Both the position numbers and the translations under genes were made by a program. From positions 1 through 42,199 of the IMG/VR virus record IMGVR_UViG_3300049012_000007: a stretch of 42,199 nt of DNA; one strand, written 5' to 3'. Positions 12,470 through 35,185 of this stretch are shown one piece after another. The number at the start of each line of letters is the position of its first letter. Position 1 is the stretch's first letter. This DNA is from a virus (Duplodnaviria > Caudoviricetes). Below the pieces are notes generated by a model. The model did not search any database and had not been told where the DNA came from. It saw only the letters and a list, made by a program, of their open reading frames with translations.

Positions 12470-12509
12470 ACCGTATCACACTCGCCTATTGATAATGGTC
12501 AGACCACTA
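12470..12509 (-). promoter_or_regulatory. FadR-like box + extended -10 promoter A (drives methyltransferase)
   Basis: Minus strand TAGTGGTCTGACCATTA (centre 12501); TGTGA-TACGGT (-12 at 12475); 26 bp. Confidence 0.7.
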
Positions 12510-12635
12510 CCTAACCCACTCCGGATAAATCCGGAACCGCTGAAATATCGCCTCGGGAACTTCTTCTGGTGGTATGTCAGTGATGTATGGAAATGGTCGT
12601 TCATAGTTTGGAAGTTTAATTGTGTATTTCTTCAA
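12507..12635 (-). CDS. Hypothetical protein, 42 aa (MKKYTIKLPNYERPFPYITD...)
   Basis: TTG start with GGAG RBS overlapping the upstream TGA; translated by hand. Confidence 0.5.
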   Translation of the reverse strand: MKKYTIKLPNYERPFPYITDIPPEEVPEAIFQRFRIYPEWVR

Positions 12636-13564
12636 AATAGCTCCAGTTGATTCGCAAACGCCTCGCATGACTCCGTGCATCCACCCGGTTCTTTGCGCTT
12701 CATGCTGCGGATTGAATCATAAATTTCATCGCGGCTGTGCAGTGCAAATTTTGCAATGATTGACTCCATACTGTTACTGCCTCGATACATAACTCCCTTT
12801 TTGATGTGCTGTGTGTGTGTTTCTTGAAATAGACCATCCGTGGTTTTTTCGATAGGCTGGTTTAGCCTATCGGATGCTGAGTCAATAGCGCCAAGCCAAT
12901 CAGCAAGCAACTCTGGCTCGTCACGCGAAGCTAGGGCCAATTTGTTTATCGACTTCTTGATGCAGAAAACGCAGTTGCCTTGATGCTCCTGTATTTCTAA
13001 ATCGAATGGCATGCCAGACCAAAAGTCAAGAACGTCATCTTTTTCAAAGTCTGTTATTTCTGCCATATAGCGAATGCCGCGAGCATTTCCTATTTTTAAT
13101 CGCGCCGGCTCATCGTATCGAATACCAAGCCATGTTGAGTAATTTCCTTTGCCGTATTTGTCGTTACAGTATTTATCGTGCGTTTCTTCTTTCATGCGGC
13201 TGGTACACCATGCAGACATTACGGTTGGCGCGCCATATTTCCGCATAAGCTGGGCAAATGGTCCGTTCTGCATATCGTATTTAATTTCGCTAACATCAAT
13301 AACTTCGTAGGTGTGACCGACGCCAACCGGCTGATTAAAATCACCACGCAAACAGGTCAACTCAATTCCAAAATGCTCAACACACTTTTTGATAAACTTA
13401 TAAGTCTTTGGATGCTCTGCGCCAGTATCCATGAAGATATACTCTACTTGCGCAGTCCATTCACCAGACTTACGCATAGACTCAATCAGCCAAACCATAT
13501 ACGCAGACGTGCGTCCGCCTGAAAAGCTAACTACCTGCACTTTTGAGTTATCTATTTTAATCAT
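12632..13564 (-). CDS. PAPS-reductase-like PP-loop protein with Cys cluster
   Basis: 'SFSGGRTSAYM', 'DTGAEHPKTY', 'WCTSRMK', 'GIRYDE..R', 'GNCVFC', 'GCTESC'; GGAGGT RBS. Confidence 0.85.
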   Translation of the reverse strand: MIKIDNSKVQVVSFSGGRTSAYMVWLIESMRKSGEWTAQVEYIFMDTGAEHPKTYKFIKKCVEHFGIELTCLRGDFNQPVGVGHTYEVIDVSEIKYDMQNGPFAQLMRKYGAPTVMSAWCTSRMKEETHDKYCNDKYGKGNYSTWLGIRYDEPARLKIGNARGIRYMAEITDFEKDDVLDFWSGMPFDLEIQEHQGNCVFCIKKSINKLALASRDEPELLADWLGAIDSASDRLNQPIEKTTDGLFQETHTQHIKKGVMYRGSNSMESIIAKFALHSRDEIYDSIRSMKRKEPGGCTESCEAFANQLELF

Positions 13565-13584
13565 TCCCACCTCCAAAAATAAAA

Positions 13585-13624
13585 ACCATACCACAACAAA
13601 TCACTCTATCTGGTCTGACTTCAT
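13585..13624 (-). promoter_or_regulatory. FadR-like box + extended -10 promoter B (drives PAPS-reductase-like gene)
   Basis: Minus strand ATGAAGTCAGACCAGAT (centre 13616); TGTGG-TATGGT (-12 at 13590); 26 bp. Confidence 0.65.
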
Positions 13625-13754
13625 CCGCTCCAGTGCGATCTCCACAACCAGCACAACCAGCATCCTCAACATAGCCGTATCATATCGACTAAACCCTGCT
13701 GCGTATGGGTAGTTTAGTTCCGGCAACACTAATTGGTTTGGCTGGTGGGGTTGG

Positions 13755-14237
13755 CTATTCATTGCAGTCAGAATCCATTATTCCAAGAATTTTCCTTGCT
13801 TTATCGTAATGGATTAATAGCATTCCATTCATTGCATCTGTTTGCACAAAATTCTCTTTCTGCTCATCAAGCATGTCTGAGTCATCATCAAGTATTAAAT
13901 AATTCTCGATTTCTTGGTGGCGATTTAACCACTCTGCAATTTCATCTCCGCGTTTTACGCAAAATCCGCTCATCTGCTTTGTTTGCCAGTCCGCATGAAA
14001 CGCGTTTGCAATAGCCTTAAATCCGCAACACCTGAAAAGTTGCTTCAGCTGCCTGTCAGTTGCGCCAATTCTCCAGCTTGAACTGATTACAATTTTAGCT
14101 TTTGCATCCAAAACAAGGCGTTGAACCATATGCATTGCCGCTGGCTCAAAAGCGCTTAGCCAGCCAGTTTCATTAATTGCCACACAATATCTAGGCGACT
14201 GAATAACGCCATCAATATCAAGAAAAATTACATTCAT
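13755..14237 (-). CDS. HAD-superfamily phosphatase (Swiss-army-knife RNA-repair-like HAD)
   Basis: 'IFLDIDGV', 'IVISSSWR', 'RGDEI..W', 'YLILDDDSDM'. Confidence 0.85.
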   Translation of the reverse strand: MNVIFLDIDGVIQSPRYCVAINETGWLSAFEPAAMHMVQRLVLDAKAKIVISSSWRIGATDRQLKQLFRCCGFKAIANAFHADWQTKQMSGFCVKRGDEIAEWLNRHQEIENYLILDDDSDMLDEQKENFVQTDAMNGMLLIHYDKARKILGIMDSDCNE

Positions 14238-14277
14238 CTCTCACTCCAAAAGGCGACACGCAGTCGCCGGTGGTTGG

Positions 14278-14472
14278 TTAATTCCTCGCCATCATAGATA
14301 GCGCTGACTCTAACTTGTTAAGTGCGCTATCAAGCAAATCAGCGCATGGGTCGCACTCATCCAAATCAAGCGCAGTTCCTTGCAGGTTTGCTGGGTCAAT
14401 CTTTGCCTGGCGAATGGCATATTGAATAGAATCAATTTCGCTAATCGCCTCAAGCAGTCGTTTCTGGTACAT
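14278..14472 (-). CDS. Hypothetical helical protein
   Basis: AGGAG RBS; 64 aa. Confidence 0.6.
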   Translation of the reverse strand: MYQKRLLEAISEIDSIQYAIRQAKIDPANLQGTALDLDECDPCADLLDSALNKLESALSMMARN

Positions 14473-14481
14473 GGCGCGCTC

Positions 14482-14889
14482 CTAAAATGGAATATCGTCA
14501 TCGAAATCCGGCAAACCTGCTGGCTGCTGTGCTGGTGCTGGACGCGCAGGCGCTGACTGTTGTGGTGCTGGACGTGCCGCTGCTTGCGGTGCAGCTTCTG
14601 ACTTACCTCCAAGCGTTACACTGTTACAGCGTAGCGTGATGTAGGTTTTGCCTTCATGCTCTCGCGTTCCAAGCTCGCCAGACACAACAACAAACTGACC
14701 TTTTTTCAGATACTGCACCAATCCGGATTCAGCCTGCTTTCCCCATACTGAGCAGTCCAGCCAAATAGTTTGCGCTTTGTCGCCATAGCCTGATTTCATT
14801 GCCAGGCTAAAACCTGCTACTGCTGTGCCGCCAGCATTACGCACTTCTGCGTCGCGGCCAATGTTTCCTGATGCGGTTAATACGTTCAT
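14482..14889 (-). CDS. ssb: Single-stranded DNA-binding protein
   Basis: OB fold 'GNIGRDAE...WGKQAE...YLKKG...V.GEL'; acidic tail 'DFDDDIPF'. Confidence 0.95.
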   Translation of the reverse strand: MNVLTASGNIGRDAEVRNAGGTAVAGFSLAMKSGYGDKAQTIWLDCSVWGKQAESGLVQYLKKGQFVVVSGELGTREHEGKTYITLRCNSVTLGGKSEAAPQAAARPAPQQSAPARPAPAQQPAGLPDFDDDIPF

Positions 14890-14920
14890 TTCTAATCCTT
14901 AATGGTTGTTGGAGCTGTGA

Positions 14921-15517
14921 TCACAGCTCCGGTTCTTCTGGTGATTCTTCAATAACAACTGGAGCTACCCGCTCAAGTTCGGATAGCTGAGCTGATGTTA
15001 ACTGACCTGTTTGTTGGCACTTTGCAACTACTTGCTGAAGTGTCATCTCTCCTGACTGCATTTTTGCCGCCATAGTCTGCAGTGCTGCTGCAAACTTGTC
15101 ATCTGGATATGCTGGCATCTGCGTATCAAGGTATGAGACATTGACTGGAACGCGCTGCTGCCTGTTTATTGCTTCAACAACAACCATTCCGCGCTTATCA
15201 ATATCTGACATTGCTTTTACGCGAATGCCGCCAACTTCTTTGCCTGCGTATTTCACTGATGCGTCAAAATGCAGTTTTACTGACTTGCCAATCCAATTAT
15301 CAGATTCCCAGCCCCAGCCAGCAGCCAATACTCGCCGCATGCCTTTGCTTGGCTTCCACGGGCGGTTGTTGTCGCCGTCGAAGTAAACTGAAACTGGTTG
15401 CTCTTTACCGCTACCAACAGCGACATTGCGGATCCGAATAACCAAATCAATCCCCATGATGTCAGTAGCATTGAGCTGGTCTGACTTCGCTTCTAGCGTT
15501 CCTCTTACGTCGGCCAT
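14921..15517 (-). CDS. Putative recombination/ssDNA-annealing partner protein
   Basis: Between exonuclease and SSB; 'KSDQLNA.D...PWKPSKGMRRVL...WG...W.G...GGIR' phage motif. Confidence 0.5.
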   Translation of the reverse strand: MADVRGTLEAKSDQLNATDIMGIDLVIRIRNVAVGSGKEQPVSVYFDGDNNRPWKPSKGMRRVLAAGWGWESDNWIGKSVKLHFDASVKYAGKEVGGIRVKAMSDIDKRGMVVVEAINRQQRVPVNVSYLDTQMPAYPDDKFAAALQTMAAKMQSGEMTLQQVVAKCQQTGQLTSAQLSELERVAPVVIEESPEEPEL

Positions 15518-15518
15518 A

Positions 15519-16364
15519 TTAAAACTCTCCTAATAGTTCAGGGTCTGCCGCCCAGTTCGGTAAAGTAATGTATTCCAAGTTGCCAGCAGGCATCGGCCAA
15601 TCGTTGCGCTGCAAGCAATCTGCGTACAGGTCAAGCGCTTGGCGGTACAGCTTGCGGCCATAGTCAACTGATGGTGTATCAAGCCGGAATATGCGGCTTG
15701 CGTTTGGCGCTTCTTTCTCAACAGCTAAGAAGTCAAATGACTCTAACTGCAAACCAGTCGCCCACGCAAACACATCGGAGTAGTACGCCTGCTGCACATG
15801 GTAGCGATAGTTGGCAACTGACTTGGCAAAGTCTCGCAAGTCTTGTGTTGTCTTCAGGTCAACGCTTCGCAGGTCTGCCAGCAACTTGTCGAACTTGCAC
15901 TTGACCAATACTCCGGTAATTGGATCCGTTGCGAATACAGCAATCTCAACATATCCAGATGCGTCAAGTAGCTCGACAGCTGCACTGTTCAAGCGCACTG
16001 ACTCACGCATGCCAATCACTGAGTCAGCCTCTGTGCCTGTCAGTACGTTATCAGCGCCAAACTGCTCTGCCGCTTGCTTATATACAGAGCTGCGCCGGTC
16101 TGTTACGTCACGCAGTAGCATATACTGCTTGTCGAACTCTGCAGGCTCAAGGATGGCTGCATGCGTTGCGCTACCTATTACCATAGCGCGTGTTGGTTCA
16201 GTCGCTGCGCGATATGCGTAGTGCGCTGGGCTGCGTGCAATCAGGTCAAGACCTGACTTGCTGATGCCAAAACCGCTGTGATAAGCATCGTTTGGCATAC
16301 CAGTCACCAAGCAACCAGCCGCAGCCAGCTCAGGTGTTAACTCTTCGTATTTGATTATCTTCAT
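15519..16364 (-). CDS. RecE/exonuclease VIII-like PD-(D/E)XK nuclease
   Basis: 'YH...ISKSGLD...SPAHY', 'GSATHAAILEP', 'KCKFD...DLKTT', 'YHVQQAYY'. Confidence 0.9.
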   Translation of the reverse strand: MKIIKYEELTPELAAAGCLVTGMPNDAYHSGFGISKSGLDLIARSPAHYAYRAATEPTRAMVIGSATHAAILEPAEFDKQYMLLRDVTDRRSSVYKQAAEQFGADNVLTGTEADSVIGMRESVRLNSAAVELLDASGYVEIAVFATDPITGVLVKCKFDKLLADLRSVDLKTTQDLRDFAKSVANYRYHVQQAYYSDVFAWATGLQLESFDFLAVEKEAPNASRIFRLDTPSVDYGRKLYRQALDLYADCLQRNDWPMPAGNLEYITLPNWAADPELLGEF

Positions 16365-16380
16365 TGTGTCGCTCCGTTGG

Positions 16381-16421
16381 TTGACGTGCTCAATATAATG
16401 CGTATATTATGCTTATGTCAA
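16381..16421. promoter_or_regulatory. Overlapping divergent sigma70 promoters
   Basis: Plus strand TTGACG (16381), 18 bp, TATTAT (16405); minus strand TTGACA (16421-16416), 18 bp, TATATT (16397-16392). Confidence 0.7.
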
Positions 16422-16442
16422 CAATAAAACGGAGCCATTAAA

Positions 16443-16622
16443 ATGAATATCTCGAAAGCATACAAAGAAATTAGCGAGGCACTGACCAAGCATGACAACC
16501 TGATGGAGATTAGCCGCAAGTCTGGCGTTGCTTACAACACGCTGCTTGCTATCAAGGCAGGAACAGCAAACCCTACCATTGGCACGCTTGAGGCTGTTGC
16601 GACAGCGCTGGAGGCACAATGA
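16443..16622 (+). CDS. Cro-like XRE-family HTH regulator, 59 aa
   Basis: MNISKAYKEISEALTKHDNLMEISRKSGVAYNTLLAIKAGTANPTIGTLEAVATALEAQ; GGAG RBS; ATGA overlap with helicase; absent from the ORF track. Confidence 0.85.
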   Translation: MNISKAYKEISEALTKHDNLMEISRKSGVAYNTLLAIKAGTANPTIGTLEAVATALEAQ

Positions 16623-18085
16623 GCTTCCAGCTTTACGAAGACCAGGAAGAGTTTGTCGCCAAGCTGCGCGAGGCTCTAAAGTCTGGTATCAAGTCAGTGC
16701 TAGGAGTCGCAAGCCCAGCATTCGGCAAGACAGTGGTGGCTGCGCACATCACACAACAAGCAAGGTTGCGCGACCAATCCTCAAGCGTCTGGTTTCTTGT
16801 GCATCGCAAGAACTTGTTGCGTCAAACAAGCAAGTCGTTCTGGTCTGCCAAGATAGAGCACGGACTCATCACAAGCGGAAAAATGCGTACAACGCAACCG
16901 ATACAGGTTGGCACTATTGGAACTGTTCACAGCAGACTGAACACACTGAAGCCGCCAAAGATTCTGTTTATTGATGAAGCCCACTTAGCAAAAGGAAATA
17001 TGTTTCAAGCCGTCATAGCCTGGGCGCGTGATGCTGGCGCTATCGTTATCGGGTTAACCGGTACGCCGGTTCGGTTGGATGGAAAAAGTCTTGGAGATTT
17101 GTTTGAAATAATCATTGAAGCCAAGTCAACCAAGTGGCTTATCGAGCAAGGCAGGCTGTCTGAGTACGTCGCTTATACAACGCCAGTAAAACCAGACCTG
17201 TCAGCAGTCAAGACGCTTGCCGGTGATTACAACATAGGCGACTTAGCGCAGGCGATGGACAAGCCAACGATTGTTGGTGATGCTGTTGCGCATTGGAAGA
17301 AGTACGCAAACGGCAAGCGCACAGTTGTATATTGCTGTAACGTAGCACACAGCAAGCACACTGCAGATGCTTTCAACAGTGCTGGCATACCGGCTGCGCA
17401 CGTTGATGCAAGCACAACAGAGCAAGAGCTGAAGACCATCTGTGAATCTTTGGCTGACAGGCGCGTTCTTGTGCTGGTCAACTGCGAACTGGTTATAGAG
17501 GGCTTTGACCTATCCGCGCAGGTAGGTCGTGATGTTACGTTAGAGTGCTGCATCTTGTTGCGTCCAACGCAATCAGAGGCGCGTTATCTGCAGATGGTGT
17601 TCCGTGCGTTGCGTCGTAAGGAAGAGGCTGCAGTCATACTTGACCACGCCGGATGTATTTTGAAGCACGGACTTCCATGCCAACAGCGTGAATGGTCGCT
17701 ACTTGGACAAGTGAAAGGTAAGCGCAAAAAAGCAAACGAAGAGCCAGACGTTAACGTGCAGCAATGCGGCAAGTGCTACGCAGTTTTTTTGCCAGGTCCA
17801 GATAAATGCCCGTACTGCGGTGCTCCAGTTGAGAAGAAAGTGCGCAAGATAAACGAAGCGGACGGCGAGCTCGAAATAATAGATAAGGCGCTCATCAGCA
17901 AGCAAAACAAAAAAGAGCAAGGTCAGGCACGCACGCTGCGAGACTTGGTTGCGCTTGGCATGCGTCGCGGCATGGGTAAGGCTTCGCAGTGGGCTGCTAT
18001 TACTGCAGCTGCGCGTGAAGGACGCAAACCAACTCCTGCAGACTTTAACGAAGCGCGTAGGATCCAGATGGAGTTAACGCAATGA
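16619..18085 (+). CDS. SF2 DEAH helicase with C-terminal Zn ribbon
   Basis: 'SPAFGKT', 'DEAH', 'GLTGTP', 'EGFD', 'CGKC...CPYC'. Confidence 0.92.
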   Translation: MSFQLYEDQEEFVAKLREALKSGIKSVLGVASPAFGKTVVAAHITQQARLRDQSSSVWFLVHRKNLLRQTSKSFWSAKIEHGLITSGKMRTTQPIQVGTIGTVHSRLNTLKPPKILFIDEAHLAKGNMFQAVIAWARDAGAIVIGLTGTPVRLDGKSLGDLFEIIIEAKSTKWLIEQGRLSEYVAYTTPVKPDLSAVKTLAGDYNIGDLAQAMDKPTIVGDAVAHWKKYANGKRTVVYCCNVAHSKHTADAFNSAGIPAAHVDASTTEQELKTICESLADRRVLVLVNCELVIEGFDLSAQVGRDVTLECCILLRPTQSEARYLQMVFRALRRKEEAAVILDHAGCILKHGLPCQQREWSLLGQVKGKRKKANEEPDVNVQQCGKCYAVFLPGPDKCPYCGAPVEKKVRKINEADGELEIIDKALISKQNKKEQGQARTLRDLVALGMRRGMGKASQWAAITAAAREGRKPTPADFNEARRIQMELTQ

Positions 18086-18438
18086 ACCCAGAAACAAAAC
18101 TCATGCGCCTCATCATGCTGGCGCTGACCAAGGCTGGCTGCATCTGCTGGCGTAACGAGACCGCTGGTGCATACGTTGGTCGCGTAATACATAAAGACCA
18201 GCGCATTGTTACTCTTGCGAACGCGCAGCTGATGACGTTCGGGTTGTGCGTTGGCTCTGCTGACATCATCGGCATACACAAGGCAACAGGCCGCTTTCTA
18301 GCGGTGGAGGTGAAGACAGAAAAAGGCAAACCAACACAGGAGCAGATTAACTTCATTGAACAGGTCAGAGCAGCTAACGGCATTGCCGGTATTGCGCGGT
18401 CTGTTGAAGAAGCGCTAGACTTACTTCCCCGCAGCTAA
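18082..18438 (+). CDS. VRR-NUC nuclease (Holliday-junction resolvase-like)
   Basis: 'GSADIIG...FLAVEVKT..GK...EQ..F'. Confidence 0.9.
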   Translation: MNPETKLMRLIMLALTKAGCICWRNETAGAYVGRVIHKDQRIVTLANAQLMTFGLCVGSADIIGIHKATGRFLAVEVKTEKGKPTQEQINFIEQVRAANGIAGIARSVEEALDLLPRS

Positions 18439-18489
18439 GCGGGATAACAATTAGGGGTTTGCGAACTCCGCACTTTTCGAGGTGATACC

Positions 18490-18723
18490 ATGAGTCAGAA
18501 TGATTGCGATCATGTTGATTTTCTACGCTACGCAAGACGCAAGTTTGAAAACGGAGCTATTCATTACTGCGTGCAGTGCAGCAACTGCGGCAAGGTGGTG
18601 AAGACCAAGCGCCACAACGGCAAGCTGTTTATTAAGCATTCCGAAATACCAACCGGCTACCAGATCCACGAGTTTATGCATACTCAGGACGGCAGCTGGC
18701 AGGGAGGTTTGTTTGATGAGTAA
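18490..18723 (+). CDS. Small Zn-finger protein
   Basis: 'CDH...QCSNCG'; GAGGTG RBS. Confidence 0.6.
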   Translation: MSQNDCDHVDFLRYARRKFENGAIHYCVQCSNCGKVVKTKRHNGKLFIKHSEIPTGYQIHEFMHTQDGSWQGGLFDE

Positions 18724-20944
18724 GTTAACCGCATCGCAGTACGCTAAGATTTACGCAGAGCGCTACAACTGGCATCTGGTGCCGATTGAGCCTGGCAGGA
18801 AGTACCCAACAAGAAACGACTGGGGCAACACGGCGCTGACTGAACCGGCGCAAGCGTTCGCCTATTGGGAGCTGCACAAAGACTGGAATATGGGTGCTGC
18901 ACTTGGCCCAAGTCGCATGTGTTCGCTTGACATAGACGACGCTGAAGGCTGGGCGCTTATCCTTGAAGAGTTCGGCATTCCAGCTGATGCGCTAGACGCA
19001 TATCCGACCATTAAAGGGCGCGGCAAGCGCGTGATGTTTCGCGTGCCTGATGATATGCACTTGCCATACTGCAAGGTCAACTGGCCGCGCAAAGAAGACA
19101 GCAAGAAGCATTACACCATAGTTGAGCTACGCGCAGCCTGTGACGGATCACAGAAGCAAGACGTTCTGCCGCCATCCATACATCCTGACACAAAAGAGCC
19201 TTACGAGTGGATTGTTAAGCCTCCAAAGCAGATAGACGAATGGCCTTGCCCGCCTGATTGGTTGCTTGCGATCTGGTCTGCTTGGGATGCCTTCAAGCCT
19301 CAGCTGCAAGGAGTCTGCCCGTGGGTAGAGAAAGAAGCAACACGGCAAGCACCGGCACAGCAGCGTCAACACTCAGGCGACTTGCCAGACGTACAAGGCG
19401 AGTACAACGCACGTAACGACCTGCTGAGCGCGCTTGAGCGTTACGGGTATAGCAAGCGCGGCAAGCGTTACTTGTCACCGCACTCAGGAACTGGTCTTGC
19501 TGGTGTTCACATCCTAGACGCGCAGCACTGTTGGATCCACCACGCATCAGACCCGTTGTGCTCTGAGTCATCCGGCAAGCCTGTTAGCGCATACGACCTG
19601 TTTGCGTACTACGACTGCGGCGGAGACTACAAGCAAGCGTTTCGAAAAGCAGCTGAGCAGCTGGGAATAGCGCTCAAAGCGCCAGCCAAGGTCAAGCCAA
19701 GCAACCAGCCGCAGCCACTACAACCCGCCGCTGAGCCGGTTGTATACGACGCACAGCCTGATGCGCCGTTGCCGTACTGCTCAGAGAAAGGAATTCCGGT
19801 GGCGCACATTGCCAACTTACAAGAGGTCTGTCGCAGGCTTGGTGTTGTCGTGCGTTATAACGTCATCAGCAAGGAAGAAGAGGTCTTGATTCCTGGCCAG
19901 TCATTCAGTTTGGATAACGAGGGCAACGCATCGCTTGCTTGGCTTGAGTCTGAATGCAGCCTGTTCAAGATGCCAACAAGCAAGCTGCCTGCGTTTGTGA
20001 CATACATCGCAGACCAGAACCAGTACAACCCTGTTGCAACGTGGGTTATGTCAAAACCGTGGGATGGGCAAGACCATCTTGGGCAGTTGCTTAATACGGT
20101 AAAGATTAAAGACGCTGGAAACATGGAAGCGGTGCTGCTGAAAGATACACTTATCACACGCTGGATGATTTCCGCTGTCGCTGGCGCGTTCTCACCTGAT
20201 GGCGTGTCTGCTGCAGGTGTGCTTGTGTTTCAGGGCGACCAGTACGTTGGCAAAACTAAGTGGTTTAAGTCGCTTGTGCCGGATGAGCTGAACGTCATCA
20301 AGGACGGAGTGATACTGAAACCAGATGATAGAGACAGCGTAAAGCAGGCTGTTAGCTTTTGGTTGGTTGAGCTTGGTGAGTTAGACAGTACGTTCAGAAA
20401 GGCTGACATAGCGGCTCTGAAGGCGTTTCTGACTAATAAGAAGGATGTACTGCGAAGAGCTTACGCACGCAAAGAAAGCCAGTATGCGCGTCGGACGGTG
20501 TTCTTTGGCTCAGTGAACCCTAAGCAGTTCCTGCATGACCCGACAGGCAACCGGCGTTACTGGACTATCGAGGTATCGCATCTTGACCATAGCCACACGG
20601 TTGATATGCAGCAGGTCTGGGCGCAGGTCTATCACGATTGGATGAATGGCGCTTCTCACTATTTGACTGCAGATGAGATGAACCAGCTGAACAGTCATAA
20701 CGAAGACTTTACTGCGTCAGACCCGATTGATGAGGTTGTGCAGCAGACATTCGACTGGGATTGCAAGCAAGAGCATTGGCGGTGGATTACTGCCACTGAT
20801 GCTGTGCGTGAATGCGGTTATGAGCGCCCCACGAAGATGGATTGCAACACTGCAGCAGTCGCAATTAGGAAGCTAAATGGCAACCAGGGCAAGCGAACTA
20901 GCGCAGCAAAACTGCTGCTTGTTCCGCCTAAGCGCTTCAACTAA
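18716..20944 (+). CDS. Bifunctional primase-polymerase (Prim-Pol) fused to VirE/VapE-type ATPase/helicase
   Basis: N-terminal 'LDID...PPSIHP'; C-terminal 'QGDQYVGKT', 'ELGEL', 'RRAY', 'DPTGNRRYW'. Confidence 0.9.
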   Translation: MSKLTASQYAKIYAERYNWHLVPIEPGRKYPTRNDWGNTALTEPAQAFAYWELHKDWNMGAALGPSRMCSLDIDDAEGWALILEEFGIPADALDAYPTIKGRGKRVMFRVPDDMHLPYCKVNWPRKEDSKKHYTIVELRAACDGSQKQDVLPPSIHPDTKEPYEWIVKPPKQIDEWPCPPDWLLAIWSAWDAFKPQLQGVCPWVEKEATRQAPAQQRQHSGDLPDVQGEYNARNDLLSALERYGYSKRGKRYLSPHSGTGLAGVHILDAQHCWIHHASDPLCSESSGKPVSAYDLFAYYDCGGDYKQAFRKAAEQLGIALKAPAKVKPSNQPQPLQPAAEPVVYDAQPDAPLPYCSEKGIPVAHIANLQEVCRRLGVVVRYNVISKEEEVLIPGQSFSLDNEGNASLAWLESECSLFKMPTSKLPAFVTYIADQNQYNPVATWVMSKPWDGQDHLGQLLNTVKIKDAGNMEAVLLKDTLITRWMISAVAGAFSPDGVSAAGVLVFQGDQYVGKTKWFKSLVPDELNVIKDGVILKPDDRDSVKQAVSFWLVELGELDSTFRKADIAALKAFLTNKKDVLRRAYARKESQYARRTVFFGSVNPKQFLHDPTGNRRYWTIEVSHLDHSHTVDMQQVWAQVYHDWMNGASHYLTADEMNQLNSHNEDFTASDPIDEVVQQTFDWDCKQEHWRWITATDAVRECGYERPTKMDCNTAAVAIRKLNGNQGKRTSAAKLLLVPPKRFN

Positions 20945-20950
20945 CAAACA

Positions 20951-20976
20951 AGGCCACCTTCGGTGGCTTTTTTATT
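20951..20976 (+). terminator. Intrinsic terminator
   Basis: GCCACC-TTC-GGTGGC followed by a T-run. Confidence 0.85.
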
Positions 20977-20990
20977 TCTGCTGCTACGTA

Positions 20991-21270
20991 AATAGTTGGT
21001 CACTTTTTAAAATAGTTGGTCACTAAATAAGTTATTGATTTTACTATGTGTTTTTTGATTAGTGACCAACGTGACCAGTGACCAACTACTTTCAAACTCT
21101 ATAACGGGTTTACGCGCAATATGGCGCTTATATGGCTATTAACTGTATTTGTATTTTATATATATACTTGGTCACTTGGTCACTAAATAGCTGTAAGCCA
21201 CGAAAGACGCGGGCTGCAGGCGTGACCAACTCAAAAAATAGTTGGTCACCTTGGTCACTGGTTGGTCACC
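20991..21270. repeat. Iteron array / putative replication origin
   Basis: TGGTCAC at 20997, 21017, 21169, 21177, 21243, 21252, 21263; inverted GTGACCA at 21062, 21071, 21078, 21222; AT-rich spacers; just downstream of Prim-Pol/VirE. Confidence 0.8.
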
Positions 21271-21273
21271 GCT

Positions 21274-21313
21274 AGCTGGTCATACCACTACCACCTAAAA
21301 AAGCTGATACAGT
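21274..21313 (+). promoter_or_regulatory. FadR-like box + extended -10 promoter C (drives the 21345 operon)
   Basis: AGCTGGTCATACCACTA (centre 21282); TGA-TACAGT (-12 at 21308); 26 bp. Confidence 0.65.
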
Positions 21314-21344
21314 TTGTATTGTGATTAATTGATGGGGAAGAGAG

Positions 21345-21629
21345 ATGAAACGAATGAGTGAGGTTTTTGAGTTGCCGTTATCGCAACTACCAGAGGCTGA
21401 CGACCAGATACAAGACGCTAACGAAGATTGGGCGCTGGTTGTCAGACTGCCATGGCGCACAGATTACGTTGTTAACGCAATCAACAACGTCGATGCGCTG
21501 GCTGATGCTTTGGAGGATGTCGTAAAAGCATGGAGATTTCTATGCGCTTGCAATGGGTACGATGAAGACCATTTGGTTGAGTTTGAGAATGCAAAGAAAG
21601 CACTACAAGCATACCGAGGCACAAAATGA
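21345..21629 (+). CDS. Hypothetical protein
   Basis: 94 aa; first gene of a translationally coupled cluster. Confidence 0.65.
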   Translation: MKRMSEVFELPLSQLPEADDQIQDANEDWALVVRLPWRTDYVVNAINNVDALADALEDVVKAWRFLCACNGYDEDHLVEFENAKKALQAYRGTK

Positions 21630-21898
21630 ACCCATGCTACAACAGTATTGCGCTGGCAAGGCACCAGCACGATTTAGACCGGCAAGAAGCCAAAGAGCAT
21701 TGGGTAGCTGCGGCTGTGGATAGGATGCTTGCGGATGACGATTGGCTCCTTGAGACAAAAAAGAAATGGTTTTACTGCGAGGAAGACGTCATTTATTCCT
21801 TGATTGAAACAGAAGCCAAAGAGCAAGCCAACCGAGAATACCAACAACACCTATCTGCACTCGAGCAGGCGCGGATTGATGGCATGGTGTCGGAATGA
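21626..21898 (+). CDS. Hypothetical protein
   Basis: ATGA coupling. Confidence 0.6.
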   Translation: MNPCYNSIALARHQHDLDRQEAKEHWVAAAVDRMLADDDWLLETKKKWFYCEEDVIYSLIETEAKEQANREYQQHLSALEQARIDGMVSE

Positions 21899-22131
21899 AG
21901 TTCTGCGCCATAGAAATCCAAAAGATGCTAGACAGAGGAATGTCTAGAGCGCAAATCTCTAGAGAGATTAAATGCAGCAAATCTAATGTTAGTAAATATG
22001 TCGGCACAGCCTGCGACACCGAGCAATGGGAGCAAGAGCGCCAGCGCCACGCAGATTTCTTCTCCGGATTAACTCCGCAGCAAGAGTACGACTTACACAC
22101 AAAACGTAGAAAGGAGATGGATGATGAGTAA
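21895..22131 (+). CDS. HTH-containing protein
   Basis: 'GMSRAQISREIKCSKSNVSKYV'. Confidence 0.7.
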   Translation: MKFCAIEIQKMLDRGMSRAQISREIKCSKSNVSKYVGTACDTEQWEQERQRHADFFSGLTPQQEYDLHTKRRKEMDDE

Positions 22132-22792
22132 TACAGTGGATTGGAGTAAAGCGCCTGAGGGGGCTGAGTTTTATGCATACGGGTGCTTCAGAAAAGACGG
22201 CGAGGTTTGGAATGGTTGCTTATGGCTTTACGGCATTAGCCGTGCCGAAGCCTCTGCAAGTGGTGACTACCAACCACGCCCAACACCACAAGAAAAACCA
22301 ATGAAATACGAATACGGCGTAGAGTATCCAACAAACGGCGTAAAGCCTGATTTGCCGGATGATGTGTTGGTTGAGGTTCAAACCGGTAAATTCAATTTTG
22401 GCGAGCTGACTGAATTTCCAGCGCATAGAGTGAAGTGGGAAAACTCAACAGCATTCCGAATCGTAGACCAGCGCTACAAGCCTGCCACTGCTACGGTTGC
22501 ACCAACAACCGCCGCAGAATACCTATCTGCATGCGCTCAGGTTCAATTAGAGCGTGGCAAGCAATGCGACGCTAGCGGTACAGGCGAGCGCAGCTTTGAC
22601 GCAGCGGCAGAGGCGTTTAATTGCATTACAGGAAAACACCTTCGCGGCAGTGATGTTTGTTTAATCCTGGTGATGGTGAAGCTGGTTCGGCAGTACAGCG
22701 ACCCGACGCGACTGCATGCTGATTCTGTGCTGGATATGATTAGCTATGCATCGTTATGGGCTGAAGAGTTAACGAAGGAGTTGAGTAAGTGA
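22121..22792 (+). CDS. Mosaic protein with C-terminal DUF6378-like domain
   Basis: 'DWSKAPEGAE' N-terminal module; C-terminal 'ERG..D...ERSF...A.AF...MVKLVR...H.DS.LD..SYA'. Confidence 0.6.
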   Translation: MMSNTVDWSKAPEGAEFYAYGCFRKDGEVWNGCLWLYGISRAEASASGDYQPRPTPQEKPMKYEYGVEYPTNGVKPDLPDDVLVEVQTGKFNFGELTEFPAHRVKWENSTAFRIVDQRYKPATATVAPTTAAEYLSACAQVQLERGKQCDASGTGERSFDAAAEAFNCITGKHLRGSDVCLILVMVKLVRQYSDPTRLHADSVLDMISYASLWAEELTKELSK

Positions 22793-22986
22793 AAATAACG
22801 CCAATCGATGTTGTGGGGCAAAACGGAAACAGTGCATTGCACTACACATGGACAATCCATGGCACTGAATACCGCCTTGGGCCTCATGCGTATGCTTTGT
22901 ATCTGAAGGGTGGCGAGTGGCGCGAAAGTGCTACTTTGACGAATCAAGAGTTGTTGCGGATAGCGGCGGAGGAAGCGCAATGCTAA
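22789..22986 (+). CDS. Hypothetical protein
   Basis: GTG start with AAGGAG RBS. Confidence 0.55.
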   Translation: MKITPIDVVGQNGNSALHYTWTIHGTEYRLGPHAYALYLKGGEWRESATLTNQELLRIAAEEAQC

Positions 22987-23192
22987 ACCAGCAAGCCACC
23001 ACAATCTGCATAGCACGGAGACTAGCGCAGCACTACAAAGAAAACCAACAGGCGGTTATCGTACAGACTGCCGCAAGGTTGCTGCCTGAATCTGACGCAG
23101 AGACAAAGGACGCACTGATGCAGTTGATTGCAGCCAGTCCAGCGCAAAGACAGGAGATAGTCAGCCGGGCTGAGCGCGACATTCTGGTATGA
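22980..23192 (+). CDS. Hypothetical protein
   Basis: GGAGG RBS before ATG 22980. Confidence 0.55.
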   Translation: MLNQQATTICIARRLAQHYKENQQAVIVQTAARLLPESDAETKDALMQLIAASPAQRQEIVSRAERDILV

Positions 23193-23251
23193 CCACTAAA
23201 CAAGAAGAGATGAGTTATGATTGACGAGAAATCAGTTTTTAGAGTTGGGAG

Positions 23252-23506: not shown

Positions 23507-23667
23507 GCCTCCACAGAAACATCCGCCGCAACGCAGCAAAGCGCCCTATCCGACTTGATGAGTTAGGGCCAAATAGCAGAGAGGTGGCAAAGAGGATGAT
23601 TAAAGATGGCGAGCTGCTGCCATCAGGCAATGGATACATTCTAAACGAAGCCAAGAAGCCTGCATAA
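23503..23667 (+). CDS. Small basic protein, 54 aa (MSLHRNIRRNAAKRPIRL...)
   Basis: GAGGTG RBS, ATGA overlap; translated by hand. Confidence 0.55.
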   Translation: MSLHRNIRRNAAKRPIRLDELGPNSREVAKRMIKDGELLPSGNGYILNEAKKPA

Positions 23668-23683: not shown

Positions 23684-23732
23684 ACTCTGCACAAGCTATA
23701 CTAATCACATAGACAACACAGAGATAAAGACC

Positions 23733-25798: not shown

Positions 25799-26073
25799 AG
25801 TTTTTCCACCTCACGACGCTGCAGCTCATGAGTCTTCCCTGAGTGTGTTTTGCACATAACAATTATCTGCACTGACCTGTCGCCTCTAAAAGTCTCGGCG
25901 ACAGCTTTGCACGATACAACCTCAGCAGTTGCATCTGTGCGAAGGATTAAAACGCGATCTCCTTCGCGCAAATCTATTTTTTCTGACTCTTTCAATTCGA
26001 TGATTCTGAGTATTTTATCCTCTATGTCATCCTGCTGCTTTTCCAGCTCGGCTATTTGCTCTTCGTAGTTCAT
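25795..26073 (-). CDS. Moron-like hypothetical protein (coiled coil + SH3/KOW-like part)
   Basis: Opposite strand between terL and portal; GGAG RBS; own promoter D. Confidence 0.65.
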   Translation of the reverse strand: MNYEEQIAELEKQQDDIEDKILRIIELKESEKIDLREGDRVLILRTDATAEVVSCKAVAETFRGDRSVQIIVMCKTHSGKTHELQRREVEKL

Positions 26074-26098
26074 TTTCATCTCCAATTAAACCCAATTC

Positions 26099-26139
26099 AC
26101 CATACCACAAACACCACGCTTTCACTGCTCCGACCACTG
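26099..26139 (-). promoter_or_regulatory. FadR-like box + extended -10 promoter D
   Basis: Minus strand CAGTGGTCGGAGCAGTG (centre 26131); TGTGG-TATGGT (-12 at 26104); 27 bp. Confidence 0.65.
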
Positions 26140-26174
26140 CGCTATACTAACCAAAACTCCAAAGGGCTTGACAA

Positions 26175-28301
26175 ATGCGCCAGTTACTATCTTACATCGA
26201 CAACCCGAATATTGCTGAGGACGTTAGCGAAGACCGCTTAAAGAAAATCGGCGAGAAAGTCTGCGAGGACTACGGTAAAGACCGTGACTCTATGTCTGAT
26301 TGGTCTAAAGCTGTTGACCGAGGTATGCGCATTGCCAAGCCAGCTGACGCGCCAAAATCGTTTCCGTGGGACGGCGCGAGTAACTACAAGTCTAGCCTGA
26401 TTTATGAGGCGGTTATTAGCTTTGGAGACCGTGTTGCGAGTGAGATTCTGTCAGAGAAAGCCTTGGTCAAAGGCTGCTTAACCGGCGTCGAGTCAGAAGA
26501 AAAGAACATGCGTATGACTCGCGTCGCTAAGTTTATGAACTGGCAGTTCAACTACGAGATGAAAGAGTGGCGCGATGAGCAGGAGCAGGCGCTTTACGCA
26601 TTAGCCGCTTGTGGCGCATTCTTTAAGAAAACATTCTTCGACCCGACTGAAGGGAAGAACGTCAGCTATCCAATCTTTTACCCTAACTTCGCTGTCAATC
26701 AGAATGAGAAATCGATGTCAGCAATGACTCGGTTTACTGAGTGCAAAAACTACACTGACAACGAGATAGAAGAACGCATTCGTGCAGGCATTTGGATTGA
26801 CCAAGACTACAATCAGAATGACGACGACAAAGACAACGAGGATGGCGATGAGGCTGGAAAGCAGGAAATCACTGACAACTTCATTGAGCAATGCACATCG
26901 ATTGACTTAGATGATGACGGGTACGCAGAGCCTTATATTGTCACGGTACACAAGCAATCGGGCATGGTTGCGCGTATCGTTGCTCGCTTTGACAAGTCAT
27001 CAATCTTGGTTAAAGTTCAGGATGGTGTGGTTGCGCCACTGAATCAGATTGAGCCACAGATTAGACAGCAGGTGGCGCAAGAGAAGCTTCAAGAAGTACT
27101 GCAGATGCAGCCGGAAGATGCTGAAACAATGACTGAAGACAAGCTGATGTCCGAAGTCGATGATGCAGTTTACGGAAAAATGCAGATTGTCAAAATCAAG
27201 CCAACTGGATTAATCACTAAATACGGTTTCGTTGTTGCACCTGATGGCACATTCCTCAACTGGGGATACTGCCATCTGTTAGCGTCACAGTCAGAGCTTA
27301 TCAACACGACAACAAACCAGCTGATTGATGCTGGCTCTTTGGCAAACCTTCCGTCCGGATACAAGTCAAAAGAGTTCCGCCAAAACAAAACGCCTATGCG
27401 CATGAAGCCTGGCGAAATTACGCAAGTTGATGTGCCTGCAGACGTACTTAAAAACGGCCTGCTGTTCAACCAATTCCGTGAGCCATCTGCCGGATTGATG
27501 CAACTCAATGAAATGACCAAGGCAGAAGCTCGCAACATGACTGCCATTGTCAATCTCGAAGGCACTATTGCACCTAACGCCCCTGCAGCGACCACGCTTG
27601 GCATTCTGCAAGAGAAGATGATGCCAACCACAACTCTGATTGGTCGCGTGTTACGGTCGATGTCTGAAGAATTCAGCAAGATGTTTGACCTAAATGCTAA
27701 GTACACAGACCCGCAGTTGTATCAACAGGTTTTAGACGACCCGCAAGCTGACTATCAGCAAGACTTCACGCGCCAAGGCTATGACATTGAGCCAACCGCA
27801 GACGCAAGCAAATCAAGTCAAATGCAACAGATGCAAACGGCAACGGTATTGCTTGAGCTGTTGCCAATCTTTGACGCACCAACGCCTGCCAAGATTGCTA
27901 TTGCTGAGCGCGTGTTGAATACCATTGGAGAAACCGAGCTATTGCCAAAACTTCTGCAACAACCACAGCAAGACCCGCAGATGATGGCGATGGAGCAGGA
28001 GCGCCTACAGGTCGAACAGATGAACATGCAGCTACAGCAGCAGAATAACGACCTACTGACCAAGCAGCATGAAATCAAGATGGCAGAGCTTGAGATTAAC
28101 AGGATGAAACTGCAGCTAGACCAACAAGAGCTGCAACGGAAGCTGAAAGAAGGTAATGACAATCTCGCAGTGCAGGTTGCTAAGTTGGAATCAGAAGCTG
28201 AGCGCAATCAAGCTGATGCCGGACTGAAGAATGCACAAGAGATTAAGACCTTAGCGGAGGCTGCGCAGATAGGCAGAGAGCCTGAGCGTGAAGAGATGTA
28301 G
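26175..28301 (+). CDS. Portal protein
   Basis: 708 aa after terL; 'FPWDGASN', 'FKKTFFD', 'NQLIDAG.LANL', 'AATTLG'; Gln-rich C-terminal coiled coil. Confidence 0.9.
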   Translation: MRQLLSYIDNPNIAEDVSEDRLKKIGEKVCEDYGKDRDSMSDWSKAVDRGMRIAKPADAPKSFPWDGASNYKSSLIYEAVISFGDRVASEILSEKALVKGCLTGVESEEKNMRMTRVAKFMNWQFNYEMKEWRDEQEQALYALAACGAFFKKTFFDPTEGKNVSYPIFYPNFAVNQNEKSMSAMTRFTECKNYTDNEIEERIRAGIWIDQDYNQNDDDKDNEDGDEAGKQEITDNFIEQCTSIDLDDDGYAEPYIVTVHKQSGMVARIVARFDKSSILVKVQDGVVAPLNQIEPQIRQQVAQEKLQEVLQMQPEDAETMTEDKLMSEVDDAVYGKMQIVKIKPTGLITKYGFVVAPDGTFLNWGYCHLLASQSELINTTTNQLIDAGSLANLPSGYKSKEFRQNKTPMRMKPGEITQVDVPADVLKNGLLFNQFREPSAGLMQLNEMTKAEARNMTAIVNLEGTIAPNAPAATTLGILQEKMMPTTTLIGRVLRSMSEEFSKMFDLNAKYTDPQLYQQVLDDPQADYQQDFTRQGYDIEPTADASKSSQMQQMQTATVLLELLPIFDAPTPAKIAIAERVLNTIGETELLPKLLQQPQQDPQMMAMEQERLQVEQMNMQLQQQNNDLLTKQHEIKMAELEINRMKLQLDQQELQRKLKEGNDNLAVQVAKLESEAERNQADAGLKNAQEIKTLAEAAQIGREPEREEM

Positions 28302-28324
28302 AAAGGGGCTTACGCCCCTTTTTT
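28302..28324. terminator. Terminator between convergent genes (probably bidirectional)
   Basis: AAAGGGGC-TTAC-GCCCCTTTTTT. Confidence 0.8.
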
Positions 28325-28762
28325 GTCACTTGAGCAATACTCACGCTTGAATATCTCCTTCATTCCCTGCATTTCAATCTTGCTTGGCATTCTGTCGAAT
28401 GGCGAAGACCTCAACAACTCGGCGTCAGATAGCTGTCTCTCTGCCTCTTTAAACGTAGCAAGATTTCCGCTGCCATCAACCAAAGAAAACGCTCTGTTTA
28501 TATTAATTCCTGCATTAAGATTATCCATCATTCGCTTTCTTGCTTGCTCTACGTCAAGCTTACCTATTTTAGCCTCTTTCTCCATCTGCCTAACTCTGCG
28601 CTGCCAAGAGGCTTCAAGCCACACATTTATAATAGGTGAGTTTCCACCATAGCCTCCTCTGTCCATAACCTCCTGCACCATAGCTTTGAATGCCATTTCG
28701 TAATCATCGGCTTGATTTGACCCTCTGCACATATAAACATCATAGGATTTGCTCATAATCAT
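28310..28762 (-). CDS. Moron-like hypothetical protein
   Basis: 150 aa on the opposite strand within the head region. Confidence 0.65.
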   Translation of the reverse strand: MIMSKSYDVYMCRGSNQADDYEMAFKAMVQEVMDRGGYGGNSPIINVWLEASWQRRVRQMEKEAKIGKLDVEQARKRMMDNLNAGININRAFSLVDGSGNLATFKEAERQLSDAELLRSSPFDRMPSKIEMQGMKEIFKREYCSSDKKGA

Positions 28763-28947
28763 TACCTAGAGGCAAAACAAGCTGCAAAAAAAGATATTGT
28801 AAATATTACGTGCGCAGCAACAAGTGATTTGTCGATGACGGAATTGGAGTGTCGGTATCTAGCGTAAAGCCAATCAAAAAGAATTAGCCATAATCCCAGA
28901 ACGCACAGCGACAAAGCGGTAAAAATAAAAGCAAATAAAAATTCCAT
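28762..28947 (-). CDS. Small two-TM membrane protein
   Basis: GGAGGG RBS; two hydrophobic helices. Confidence 0.65.
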   Translation of the reverse strand: MEFLFAFIFTALSLCVLGLWLILFDWLYARYRHSNSVIDKSLVAAHVIFTISFFAACFASR

Positions 28948-28969
28948 AATTCCCTCCAATTAAAACCGC

Positions 28970-29009
28970 ACCATATCACACCTCTACATCTAACGTGGTC
29001 CGACCACAG
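28970..29009 (-). promoter_or_regulatory. FadR-like box + extended -10 promoter E
   Basis: Perfect GTGGTC-C-GACCAC at 28995-29007 (centre 29001); TGTGA-TATGGT (-12 at 28975); 26 bp. Confidence 0.75.
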
Positions 29010-29079: not shown

Positions 29080-29319
29080 ATGACCGACCCGCTAGGTATC
29101 GACGCACTAATAGACCGCAAGCGTCACGAAATAAACGACTTCACCCAACCGGAAGAAGTTTGGCAAGTTTGGCACAACCATCCCATCACGAAACATCTAT
29201 TCTCCACACTTCAAATGGAACTCTACAACCAGAAAGAATCCGGCGCAGCTGTCACATGCCCGCAGGTTATCGGCTTGCTTGAGCGCTATTTGGCATTTGA
29301 TGAGGGGAATAGCAAATGA
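29080..29319 (+). CDS. Hypothetical protein (conserved position before GroES-like gene)
   Basis: 'EEVWQVWHNHPITK' motif; synteny. Confidence 0.6.
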   Translation: MTDPLGIDALIDRKRHEINDFTQPEEVWQVWHNHPITKHLFSTLQMELYNQKESGAAVTCPQVIGLLERYLAFDEGNSK

Positions 29320-29633
29320 TTAACCCTACCGGATATTTCGTGCTCATCGAAACAGACGAGCCAGAAGTTAAATCTAATGGCGGCATTGTCTTAGCTACAG
29401 CAGAGATTGCTGACCGTATGGATGAGGCTGTGTCAACTGGCCACATTAAGGCATTTGGCCCAATGGCGTTTAAGGGGTTGTCCTGCGGCTGCAACTCACC
29501 TGAAGATTGGGGTGTGAAGGTGGGCGATAAGGTTGAATTCCTGAGCTACGACGGCAAGAGACCACAAGCGGCAGGGCGCAAGACTAAGCTACGCTTAATC
29601 ACTGACCAGCACATCATTTGCAAGGTGGAATAA
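29316..29633 (+). CDS. GroES-like co-chaperonin
   Basis: 'PTGYFVLI...KSNGGIVL...G.IKAFGP...VKVGDKVEF..Y.G...LITDQHIICKV'. Confidence 0.9.
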   Translation: MINPTGYFVLIETDEPEVKSNGGIVLATAEIADRMDEAVSTGHIKAFGPMAFKGLSCGCNSPEDWGVKVGDKVEFLSYDGKRPQAAGRKTKLRLITDQHIICKVE

Positions 29634-34061: not shown

Positions 34062-34063
34062 AA

Positions 34064-34456
34064 ATGGCGATCACATTAGGTTTAATTTTACAAAACGCAA
34101 TGGCAAATCAGGTAACAACAACTATTGGTACTGATGAGTTTATTTTGTACTCAGGTACGCCACCAGCTAACGCTAAGGCTGCATTGTCTGGCAATACCGT
34201 ACTATCTACGCATACATTGACAGGTTTTGGCGCTGCGTCATCTGGCACAATCACAGCCAACGCAATCACGACAGTTAACGGCTCAGCCACCGGCACAGCT
34301 ACGTTCTGTCGAGTTGTAAAGGCGGGCACTGCGCAAGTTCAAGGCTCTGTAGGTTTGTCAGGCTCAGGCGCTGACTGTATCGTGACAAATACCACAGTGA
34401 CATCAGGTCAGCCGGTTGCTGTTACATCGTTTACATTTACAATGCCTGATGCGTAA
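34064..34456 (+). CDS. Small beta-sandwich virion protein
   Basis: GAGGA RBS; 'LYSGTPPANA...FGAASSG...GTATF.R...QGSVG.SG.D...V.VTSFT.T'. Confidence 0.65.
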   Translation: MAITLGLILQNAMANQVTTTIGTDEFILYSGTPPANAKAALSGNTVLSTHTLTGFGAASSGTITANAITTVNGSATGTATFCRVVKAGTAQVQGSVGLSGSGADCIVTNTTVTSGQPVAVTSFTFTMPDA

Positions 34457-34471
34457 TTTGAGTGGTGCGAT

Positions 34472-35074
34472 ATGAACCAAAAGACACGAATCAACGGCGA
34501 GAACTACACGCAGTTGCCAAGGCTAATTAGCCAAAAGATGTTCAACGGACGTGCAGGCTCGACGCTGGAAGTGTCTTTTACTGATGCCACTATGCAGTCA
34601 GGTGCGCCGATAGACACGCCTAAACAAGTGAAGTATGGCGCGCCCGCAACGTCACCAAGCGGCATTGTTGCTATTGATGCTATTGGCAACTTAACGGTGC
34701 TGCAAACTGGGCCATTGTTTATCAAAAGCCGATTGCGTGTCGGCAGAACTGGCGCATCTGGCATTTCGTCCATCTTCTTTTGGGTTGAAATAAGCCTAGA
34801 TGGTGGCGTAGTGTGGAATATTCTCGGCAACTCAATTGATGTAAGGCTAGACAACTCGACAGAAAACGATGTTTTCTTTGACTTCTCGACGCTGTTTTTG
34901 GACAAAGGGATAAAGCTGCGATCAATGTTTGCCAGGAGCTCAACCGGTGACAACTCAGGCGACTTGATGCCGTCAACGCCTAGCGCTGCGCTTCAGGCTT
35001 ATGGTGTGCCGATTGCGCCTAGTGCTCAGATTAGCATTTACAGGAGCAGAGATTACTTGTATCAACAGGAGTAA
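34472..35074 (+). CDS. Hypothetical beta-rich (probably virion) protein
   Basis: 200 aa in the structural operon. Confidence 0.55.
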   Translation: MNQKTRINGENYTQLPRLISQKMFNGRAGSTLEVSFTDATMQSGAPIDTPKQVKYGAPATSPSGIVAIDAIGNLTVLQTGPLFIKSRLRVGRTGASGISSIFFWVEISLDGGVVWNILGNSIDVRLDNSTENDVFFDFSTLFLDKGIKLRSMFARSSTGDNSGDLMPSTPSAALQAYGVPIAPSAQISIYRSRDYLYQQE

Positions 35075-35076
35075 AC

Positions 35077-35148
35077 ATGAAAGACAAAAAACCAGCCAAA
35101 GAAATGCCAGCCAAAGGGCGCAGACCAGCTAAACGAAAACCGTGCTAG
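35077..35148 (+). CDS. 23-aa basic peptide MKDKKPAKEMPAKGRRPAKRKPC
   Basis: AACAGGAGTAAAC RBS; translated by hand. Confidence 0.55.
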   Translation: MKDKKPAKEMPAKGRRPAKRKPC

Positions 35149-35185
35149 TGGTCTGACCACGTAAATCCCACCAATGGTTTATGCT
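35146..35185 (+). promoter_or_regulatory. FadR-like box + -10 promoter F
   Basis: Perfect GTGGTC-T-GACCAC at 35148-35160 (centre 35154); TATGCT at 35180 (26 bp); alternative extended -10 TGTGA-TAACCT at 35205-35215. Confidence 0.55.

Follow-up and report, generated by a model that had tools for sequence, protein, structure and literature searches.

Candidate FadR-activated promoters for accessory early genes in a 42.2-kb phage genome

Box promoters in the phage genome

We analyzed a 42.2-kb phage record from IMG/VR (IMGVR_UViG_3300049012_000007, 42,199 nucleotides, classed as linear; the whole stretch is referred to as the window), in which intergenic boxes resembling operators of the bacterial regulator FadR lie upstream of -10 elements. 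Genes of podovirus type for head, ejection, and closure are present in the window, along with a helicase/primase module and several helix-turn-helix (HTH) genes. Its terminase shares 55% identity with Pseudomonas phage AH02 and 40-47% with Aeromonas, Vibrio, Shewanella, and Sortsne-like phages, and megablast returned no close cultured relative. Neither an integrase nor a GntR protein was matched in PHROGs (61 open reading frames (ORFs)) or Pfam (42 ORFs) searches; the latter bears out an initial annotation of this sequence, which had seen no GntR gene in the genome.

The initial annotation described six sites (A to F) as 13-bp pseudo-palindromes at a fixed distance from a -10 box. All six 17-mers are found at the coordinates and on the strands given in Table 1, and the distances claimed for them, 27 bp for D and 26 bp for the others, are correct when counted from the box center to the first base of the -10. 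The element itself had to be redefined as a 17-bp dyad, which fits the published FadR consensus aaCTGGTCnGACC(T/A)Gtt (PMC9329746). The six sites are real, and the set was incomplete: scoring with a matrix derived from 36 boxes in eight other phage records, picked on an 11-bp core, recovered all six and added sites G and H. Site H, the weakest, lies upstream of the leftward early operon, which comprises HTH ORF 11386-11030 and the genes downstream of it, and its homologue in record G004 is near-perfect. The genes assigned downstream of the sites required two amendments, as the ATG of the ORF after B is at 13564 and the first ORF after F encodes a 23-codon basic peptide at 35245.

Table 1. Coordinates of box promoters and other features in the window (distance, box center to first base of the -10)
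Feature	Position	Strand	Details
Box A	12493..12509	-	TG-extended -10 TACGGT at 12475-12470; distance 26
Box B	13608..13624	-	TG-extended -10 TATGGT at 13590-13585; distance 26; 2 mismatches to TGGTCNGACCA
Box C	21274..21290	+	TG-extended -10 TACAGT at 21308-21313; distance 26; abuts iterons; precedes ORFs 21345-23192
Box D	26123..26139	-	-10 TATGGT at 26104-26099; distance 27; precedes moron ORF 26085-25795
Box E	28993..29009	-	TG-extended -10 TATGGT at 28975-28970; distance 26; precedes moron ORFs 28947-28762 and 28762-28310
Box F	35146..35162	+	-10 TATGCT at 35180-35185; distance 26
Box G (new)	23182..23198	+	-10 TATGAT at 23216-23221; distance 26; precedes ORFs 23252-23667
Box H (new)	11453..11469	-	-10 TACGTT at 11435-11430; distance 26; score 6.1
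C5 cytosine DNA methyltransferase gene	11456..12445	-	PF00145; downstream of box A
PAPS-reductase-like gene	12632..13564	-	PHROGs/Pfam searches; downstream of box B
Protospacer-adjacent motif (CC) and protospacer	14761..14794	+	Protospacer 14763-14794, in SSB gene; 30/32 to type I-F spacer of G346
Divergent recombination/replication promoter region	16364..16443		Contrast case: canonical TTGACA/TTGACG, no box
Iteron-like TTGGTCAC repeats	20989..21269		10 copies, both orientations, after primase gene; TGGTCA in common with box; adjoined by box C
Terminator-like hairpin and T run	35167..35204	+	Hairpin 35167-35194; loop holds -10 of box F

The 11-bp core TGGTCNGACCA occurs seven times in the window at up to one mismatch, compared with 0.71 +/- 0.84 times in 100 shuffles, none of which reached seven. 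One of the seven matches (32744) is coding and has no -10, and site B is not among them. When a matrix score of at least 5 was combined with a TAnnnT at 26 or 27 bp, thresholds chosen after the data had been seen, eight sites were returned for the window versus a mean of 0.21 (maximum 1) for 100 first-order Markov sequences. The same test found no site in the relatives G005 and G010. A box at 18359-18375 scores 15.4 but is coding and lacks a -10.

We compared the boxes to characterized FadR operators. Although built from phage boxes only, the matrix gave high scores to the E. coli operators of fadI (19.9), fadB (19.8), and fadE (17.5) and a lower one to that of pdhR (12.7), and its best two matches in 31 kb of E. 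coli sequence are the fadI and fadL sites. The motif is thus closer to FadR than to PdhR operators, in line with the FadR-type operator named in the initial annotation. Variants among the boxes mirror those of natural FadR sites, with right halves of the fadD/fadR type (ATGAG) and of the fabA type (TTGTT).

Recurrence in other phages and a candidate host

Other phages were reached by pattern scans of IMG/VR and GTDB. The whole records G001, G002, and G003 hold 13, 13, and 8 matches to the TGGTCNGACCA core, and the reversed control gave 0. At least three distinct boxes at 26 or 27 bp are present in 14 of the 44 stretches examined; as two of these come from one contig, they represent 13 contigs including the window, the other twelve likewise being from uncultured phages. 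Box and 26-27-bp spacing, first noticed in this genome, hence recur in other phages. Box phages are of several capsid types, with a 336-aa capsid protein in G001 and L002 and one of 385-389 aa in G002, L110, and L190, neither of which matches the capsid protein of the window. Each of G001 to G003 has only 4-5 proteins in common with the window, and no window protein is common to all three.

The geometry is narrowly defined. Among 67 boxes from 12 phage records, 46 have a TAnnnT at 26 bp, with 9 at the next best distance, and the extended form TGnTAnnnT is found 33 times at this distance versus twice at all other distances. After removal of the seed matches by which contigs had been found, TAnnnT lies at exactly 26 bp in 49 of 81 unique boxes, at 21 bp in 14, and at any other distance in no more than 8; the group at 21 bp shares a T with the same -10. 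Strong boxes lie at 26 or 27 bp in 100 of 138 cases. An off-geometry control scan, with one fewer constrained position, returned 119 loci over four spacings. Single matches in the collection scan are thus often due to chance, and single-box contigs were left uncounted; by the same control, about one-third of the 46 rows of the IMG/VR pattern scan may be chance. A short blastn search with one promoter gave chance matches only. A terminase-related contig (L021) carries two box promoters. A cluster of proteins from 18 contigs was rejected, since it chained small early proteins that are present in box-less phages, too. The occurrence of one layout in podo- and siphovirus-type genomes with few common genes suggests repeated adoption on one host family.

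We searched 401 genomes of the GTDB family of Thalassotalea with window positions 9001-29000 and found a spacer in genome G346 that matches a window protospacer at 30 of 32 positions. The array that holds it has 97 repeats and adjoins csy1-4, and among its 96 spacers the next best has 6-7 mismatches. The CC that precedes the protospacer is what we take to be the type I-F protospacer-adjacent motif. A search of 60 relatives of G346 gave no additional spacer, the matches being a phage contig and short matches; a phage contig of one relative, G430, carries two boxes at 26 bp. The host FadR presupposed by the initial annotation is indeed encoded in this CRISPR-linked candidate host: the G346 protein is intact, scores above the NCBIfam cut-off (TIGR02812), and has all DNA-contact residues. 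PdhR is present as well. The sole G346 box with at most one mismatch precedes fadE, and a fabA box lies at 27 bp.

In the GTDB scan, a Thalassotalea metagenome-assembled genome was found to contain a phage contig (L190) with five boxes at 26 bp. Of the eight best boxes of this genome, six belong to the phage contig; the remaining two lie upstream of fadE and of a gene for an acyl-CoA dehydrogenase. Its FadR keeps every DNA-contact residue listed in PMC4259882 (R35, T44, R45, T46, T47, R49, H65). A strict pattern of box and TG-extended -10 had only two matches in the GTDB scan, one of them a single-box Bacteroidia contig treated as chance, and was absent from all 400 other host-family genomes. 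Cluster look-up and homolog search yielded no host names. Among the sequencing runs listed for the phage sequence, none was of RNA, and the one that contains it in full may be the source sample. From the spacer and the binned contigs we place the host of the window phage in the family of Thalassotalea with moderate confidence.

Proposed activation by host FadR and alternative readings

We next consider what the boxes may do at these promoters. In the window, the box lies over the -35 position, and the lack of a canonical -35 noted in the initial annotation extends to the larger set, where none of the 86 box promoters at 26 bp has more than two of six matches to TTGACA. The closest box-less relative, G005 (terminase 76% and head genes 55-84% identical to those of the window), has TTGACA-17-TATATT in place of the box upstream of its orthologue of the gene after G, and TTGCGG-17-TATGTT in the moron slot matching E. 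The box thus occupies the place where relatives keep a -35. In E. coli, the fabA and fabB boxes are 27 bp from the -10. The same distance is found in 27 of 30 host-family fabA promoters (L266-L295), and the order FadR box, FabR-like sequence (recognized by the motif quoted in PMC4273635), -10 is likewise kept in 27 of 30. Upstream of fabH, the best matrix match is weak (score -2.9) and lies at 26 bp with a TG extension, like the phage layout; a FadR-dependent promoter within plsX has been reported (PMC3896788). The E. coli accB and fabI matches are farther from TATAAT by one helical turn, at 36-37 bp. A similar longer geometry is seen at G001 35450 and L224 10945, where one strand has a -10 at 36-37 bp from the box and the opposite strand a -10 that the box overlaps.

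Fixed spacing and the missing -35 together argue for activation. Judging from sequence, we consider it likely that accessory early genes are activated by host FadR at the eight window promoters in the manner of fabA and fabH. The box layout is real and conserved, and it probably marks a regulon operated on phages by the host protein. Here, FadR dimers would sit over the -35 position and recruit the sigma-70 polymerase as at E. coli fabA, fabB, and fabH, with the TG extension giving the remaining contacts. Rising long-chain acyl-CoA would pull FadR off the DNA, and the box promoters would fall quiet. The predicted output is an accessory early layer made up of the methyltransferase, the PAPS-reductase-like gene, the leftward HTH operon, the post-origin genes, and morons. 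The methyltransferase, PAPS-reductase-like gene, post-origin genes, and morons named in the initial annotation do lie behind boxes; the regulon is nevertheless narrower than the whole phage program, as the divergent recombination/replication promoter region is canonical. Recombination and replication genes would run from these ordinary promoters, and a FadR switch would therefore tune rather than gate infection. Lipid sensing may have been selected, or FadR may merely be a dependable activator in growing cells; the sequence would fit either.

A tentative extension concerns divergent sites. A strong -10 on the opposite strand, 7-15 bp from the box center, occurs at 13 of 38 divergent versus 5 of 62 tandem sites (Fisher p 0.002, for related phages that are not independent and with automatic gene calls). 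At divergent sites, such opposite-strand elements often overlap the box and face virion genes, and some have a TTGACA-like -35. In the window, only site D has such an overlap, with a plus-strand TTCACT-16-TATACT (26121-26148) that faces a 708-aa ORF and whose TATACT is conserved in box-less G005. Bound FadR might thus work in two directions, activating moron and early promoters while blocking the virion-gene promoter opposite, and its release by acyl-CoA, or its titration as the genome replicates, would flip the phage to late expression. Host lipid status would then time infection. We regard this two-way switch as rather unlikely.

Several observations weigh against FadR activation in general. 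The phage spacing of 26 bp (seven of eight window sites) is one base short of that in fabA and fabB, and the fabH parallel is the weak match described above. The -10 of site F sits inside a terminator loop, and the replication genes use ordinary promoters. Because an extended -10 can suffice for promoter activity in the absence of an activator, the box may have no effect or may repress. The candidate host is linked to the phage by one old spacer with two mismatches and by binned contigs, which are possibly misbinned. Any box promoter is present in only 4 of 80 terminase-related loci, and none of 13 cultured phages tested (Vibrio, Pseudoalteromonas, Shewanella, Aeromonas, Alteromonas, Pseudomonas, Thalassomonas, Idiomarinaceae, and Colwellia phages) has more than one box (nine have 0, four have 1). 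The ORF screens covered chosen subsets by blastp and phmmer, which a small divergent phage binder could escape. Finally, bioinformatically predicted Pho boxes in a cyanophage were not all bound by PhoB in the work described in PMC10976474.

FadR could instead repress, with extended -10 promoters that are active alone and held down until acyl-CoA rises, akin to the lytic deferment proposed for CtrA and shown for Spo0A (PMC9437464). The TG extension, found in 60 of the 86 promoters, and the one-base difference from fabA keep this reading open, and the phage boxes are nearer to consensus than natural activating sites such as the fabA box, which scores 6.9. Against it, the spacing is fixed within 1 bp across unrelated phages, known repressing sites overlap the -10/+1 region (PMC9329746, section 3.1.3), the box replaces the TTG-type -35 of the G005 slots, and 26 of the 86 promoters lack both the TG and a -35. 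We find repression improbable. A clean repression geometry is seen at L002 2130, where a box fills the spacer of TTGACA-18-TATACT before scaffold/capsid genes.

A phage protein might read the box, its likeness to FadR sites being chance or convergence. The window has four HTH genes (at 9117, 11030, 16443, and 21895), and the iterons, a possible target of the primase, adjoin site C and contain the TGGTCA also present in the box. None of these candidates is common to the box phages, as judged for 16443 and 21895 by blastp (a phmmer re-check missed both). Box-less G010, with G005 the closest kin of the window phage, has the 16443 protein at 70% identity (Cro 70%, helicase 84%, primase 74%), and a homologue of the 11030 protein occurs in box-less G005. 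We rejected binding by the primase/iteron system, because G001 to G003 carry 8-13 boxes and have neither the iteron cluster nor a homologue of this primase. A cognate regulator gene common to box-sharing phages was not found in the ORF subsets chosen for blastp/phmmer, and 120 selected ORFs of G001 to G003 contain no GntR domain. As the box variants moreover copy those of natural FadR sites, a phage-encoded reader appears quite improbable.

The binder might also be a different GntR protein that the host encodes within the FadR subfamily, with PdhR as the chief candidate. A GT-N3-AC core is common to that subfamily (PMC4494728); PdhR operators have the TGGTnnnACCA core in common with the box, and with the phage matrix a pdhR operator of the host family reaches a score of 14.6. 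The flanks set the two apart: each of the 36 boxes selected by the 11-bp core has C/G at positions -6 and +6, where all four operators upstream of pdhR (from E. coli and three host-family genomes) have T and A/T, and the boxes do not match the PdhR-type AATTGGT-N3-ACCAATT flanks. Host sites with the phage pattern precede fadE and an acyl-CoA dehydrogenase gene, and we rejected PdhR, for which we see very little chance. The boxes also differ from the even dyad of the HutC subfamily, which has 4 nt between GT and AC (PMC4494728) where the box has 3. It is hardly credible that the boxes act mainly as a sponge, drawing FadR away through many strong sites on replicating genomes, which would derepress host fadE and alter lipid metabolism, with promoter position secondary: several phage sites equal or exceed the single G346 site with at most one mismatch, yet the fixed -10 distance of most strong boxes would not be needed.

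Neighboring features and relation to known systems

The hairpin at site F recurs, with the -10 in its loop, in G003 (12596), G004 (3312), and G002 (44285), where TAnnnT is kept and the stem sequences differ. Site F thus probably has two roles, ending the upstream transcript and acting as a promoter. It lies between two tandem, very basic 23-codon ORFs with strong ribosome-binding sites (35077-35148 and 35245-35316); the stop codon of the first forms the start of box F, and the second is conserved in G010. The TTGGTCAC repeat cluster next to site C probably represents origin iterons; G010 lacks it despite its 74% identical primase. A TATACT without a clear -35 is found upstream of the small terminase gene (around 23700) and of the 708-aa ORF (26143-26148), and its conservation in relatives (G005, G002) suggests late promoters that need a phage activator. 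A weak match to a late-activator PHROG was obtained for the HTH protein at 9117. Upstream of box B lies a gene with a HAD_SAK_2 domain (13755-14237). A GroES-like (Cpn10) gene (29316-29633), also found in G005, is located amid the head genes, and a minus-strand HNH endonuclease gene (7853-8434) amid the lysis genes. The ESM Atlas returned nothing usable for the 150-aa moron protein.

If host FadR activates these promoters, box phages would respond to the fatty-acid state of their host. The box may also be of use as a sequence marker in host assignment for uncultured phages, and the set of about 100 predicted FadR-activated promoters would form a natural library for studying activation by GntR proteins.

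The phage promoters resemble the FadR-activated fabA, fabB, and fabHDG promoters of E. coli and fabA of Shewanella oneidensis, with a 17-bp dyad over the -35 and 26-27 bp to the -10 (PMC9329746, PMC3896788, PMC4273635, PMC4537474), and by this likeness release by long-chain acyl-CoA would be expected at the phage sites, too. They differ in being phage-borne, in their number (eight), in serving genes unrelated to lipid synthesis, and in their near-consensus boxes. Compared with the E. coli fab promoters, they have a spacing of 26 bp with a TG extension rather than 27 bp, and we saw no FabR-type sequence adjoining the phage boxes.

Co-option of host regulators by phages is already known, and FadR as the regulator is probably a new variant. 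No paper on FadR sites in phages was among the matches listed for searches joining FadR and phage terms, whose coverage mostly leaves out subscription journals, and PMC9437464 has 0 occurrences of FadR. The closest parallel in kind may be the PhoB-driven genes of cyanophages (P-SSM2 pstS, S-PM2d), in which a lytic phage uses a host metabolic regulator that it does not encode; that case concerns a phosphate two-component system supported by electrophoretic mobility shift assays and transcriptomics (PMC10976474), and ours an acyl-CoA-sensing GntR protein and sequence evidence. Like the CtrA, Spo0A, and LexA sites of phages (PMC9437464), the boxes appear to have been gained convergently at promoters of unrelated phages within one host group. 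Those regulators report on cell cycle, sporulation, and DNA damage, and Spo0A and LexA hold genes down (PMC9437464), whereas the geometry here points to activation. The host regulators that phages are known to read concern DNA damage, sporulation, cell cycle, and phosphate, and a sensor of lipid metabolism would be a new input.

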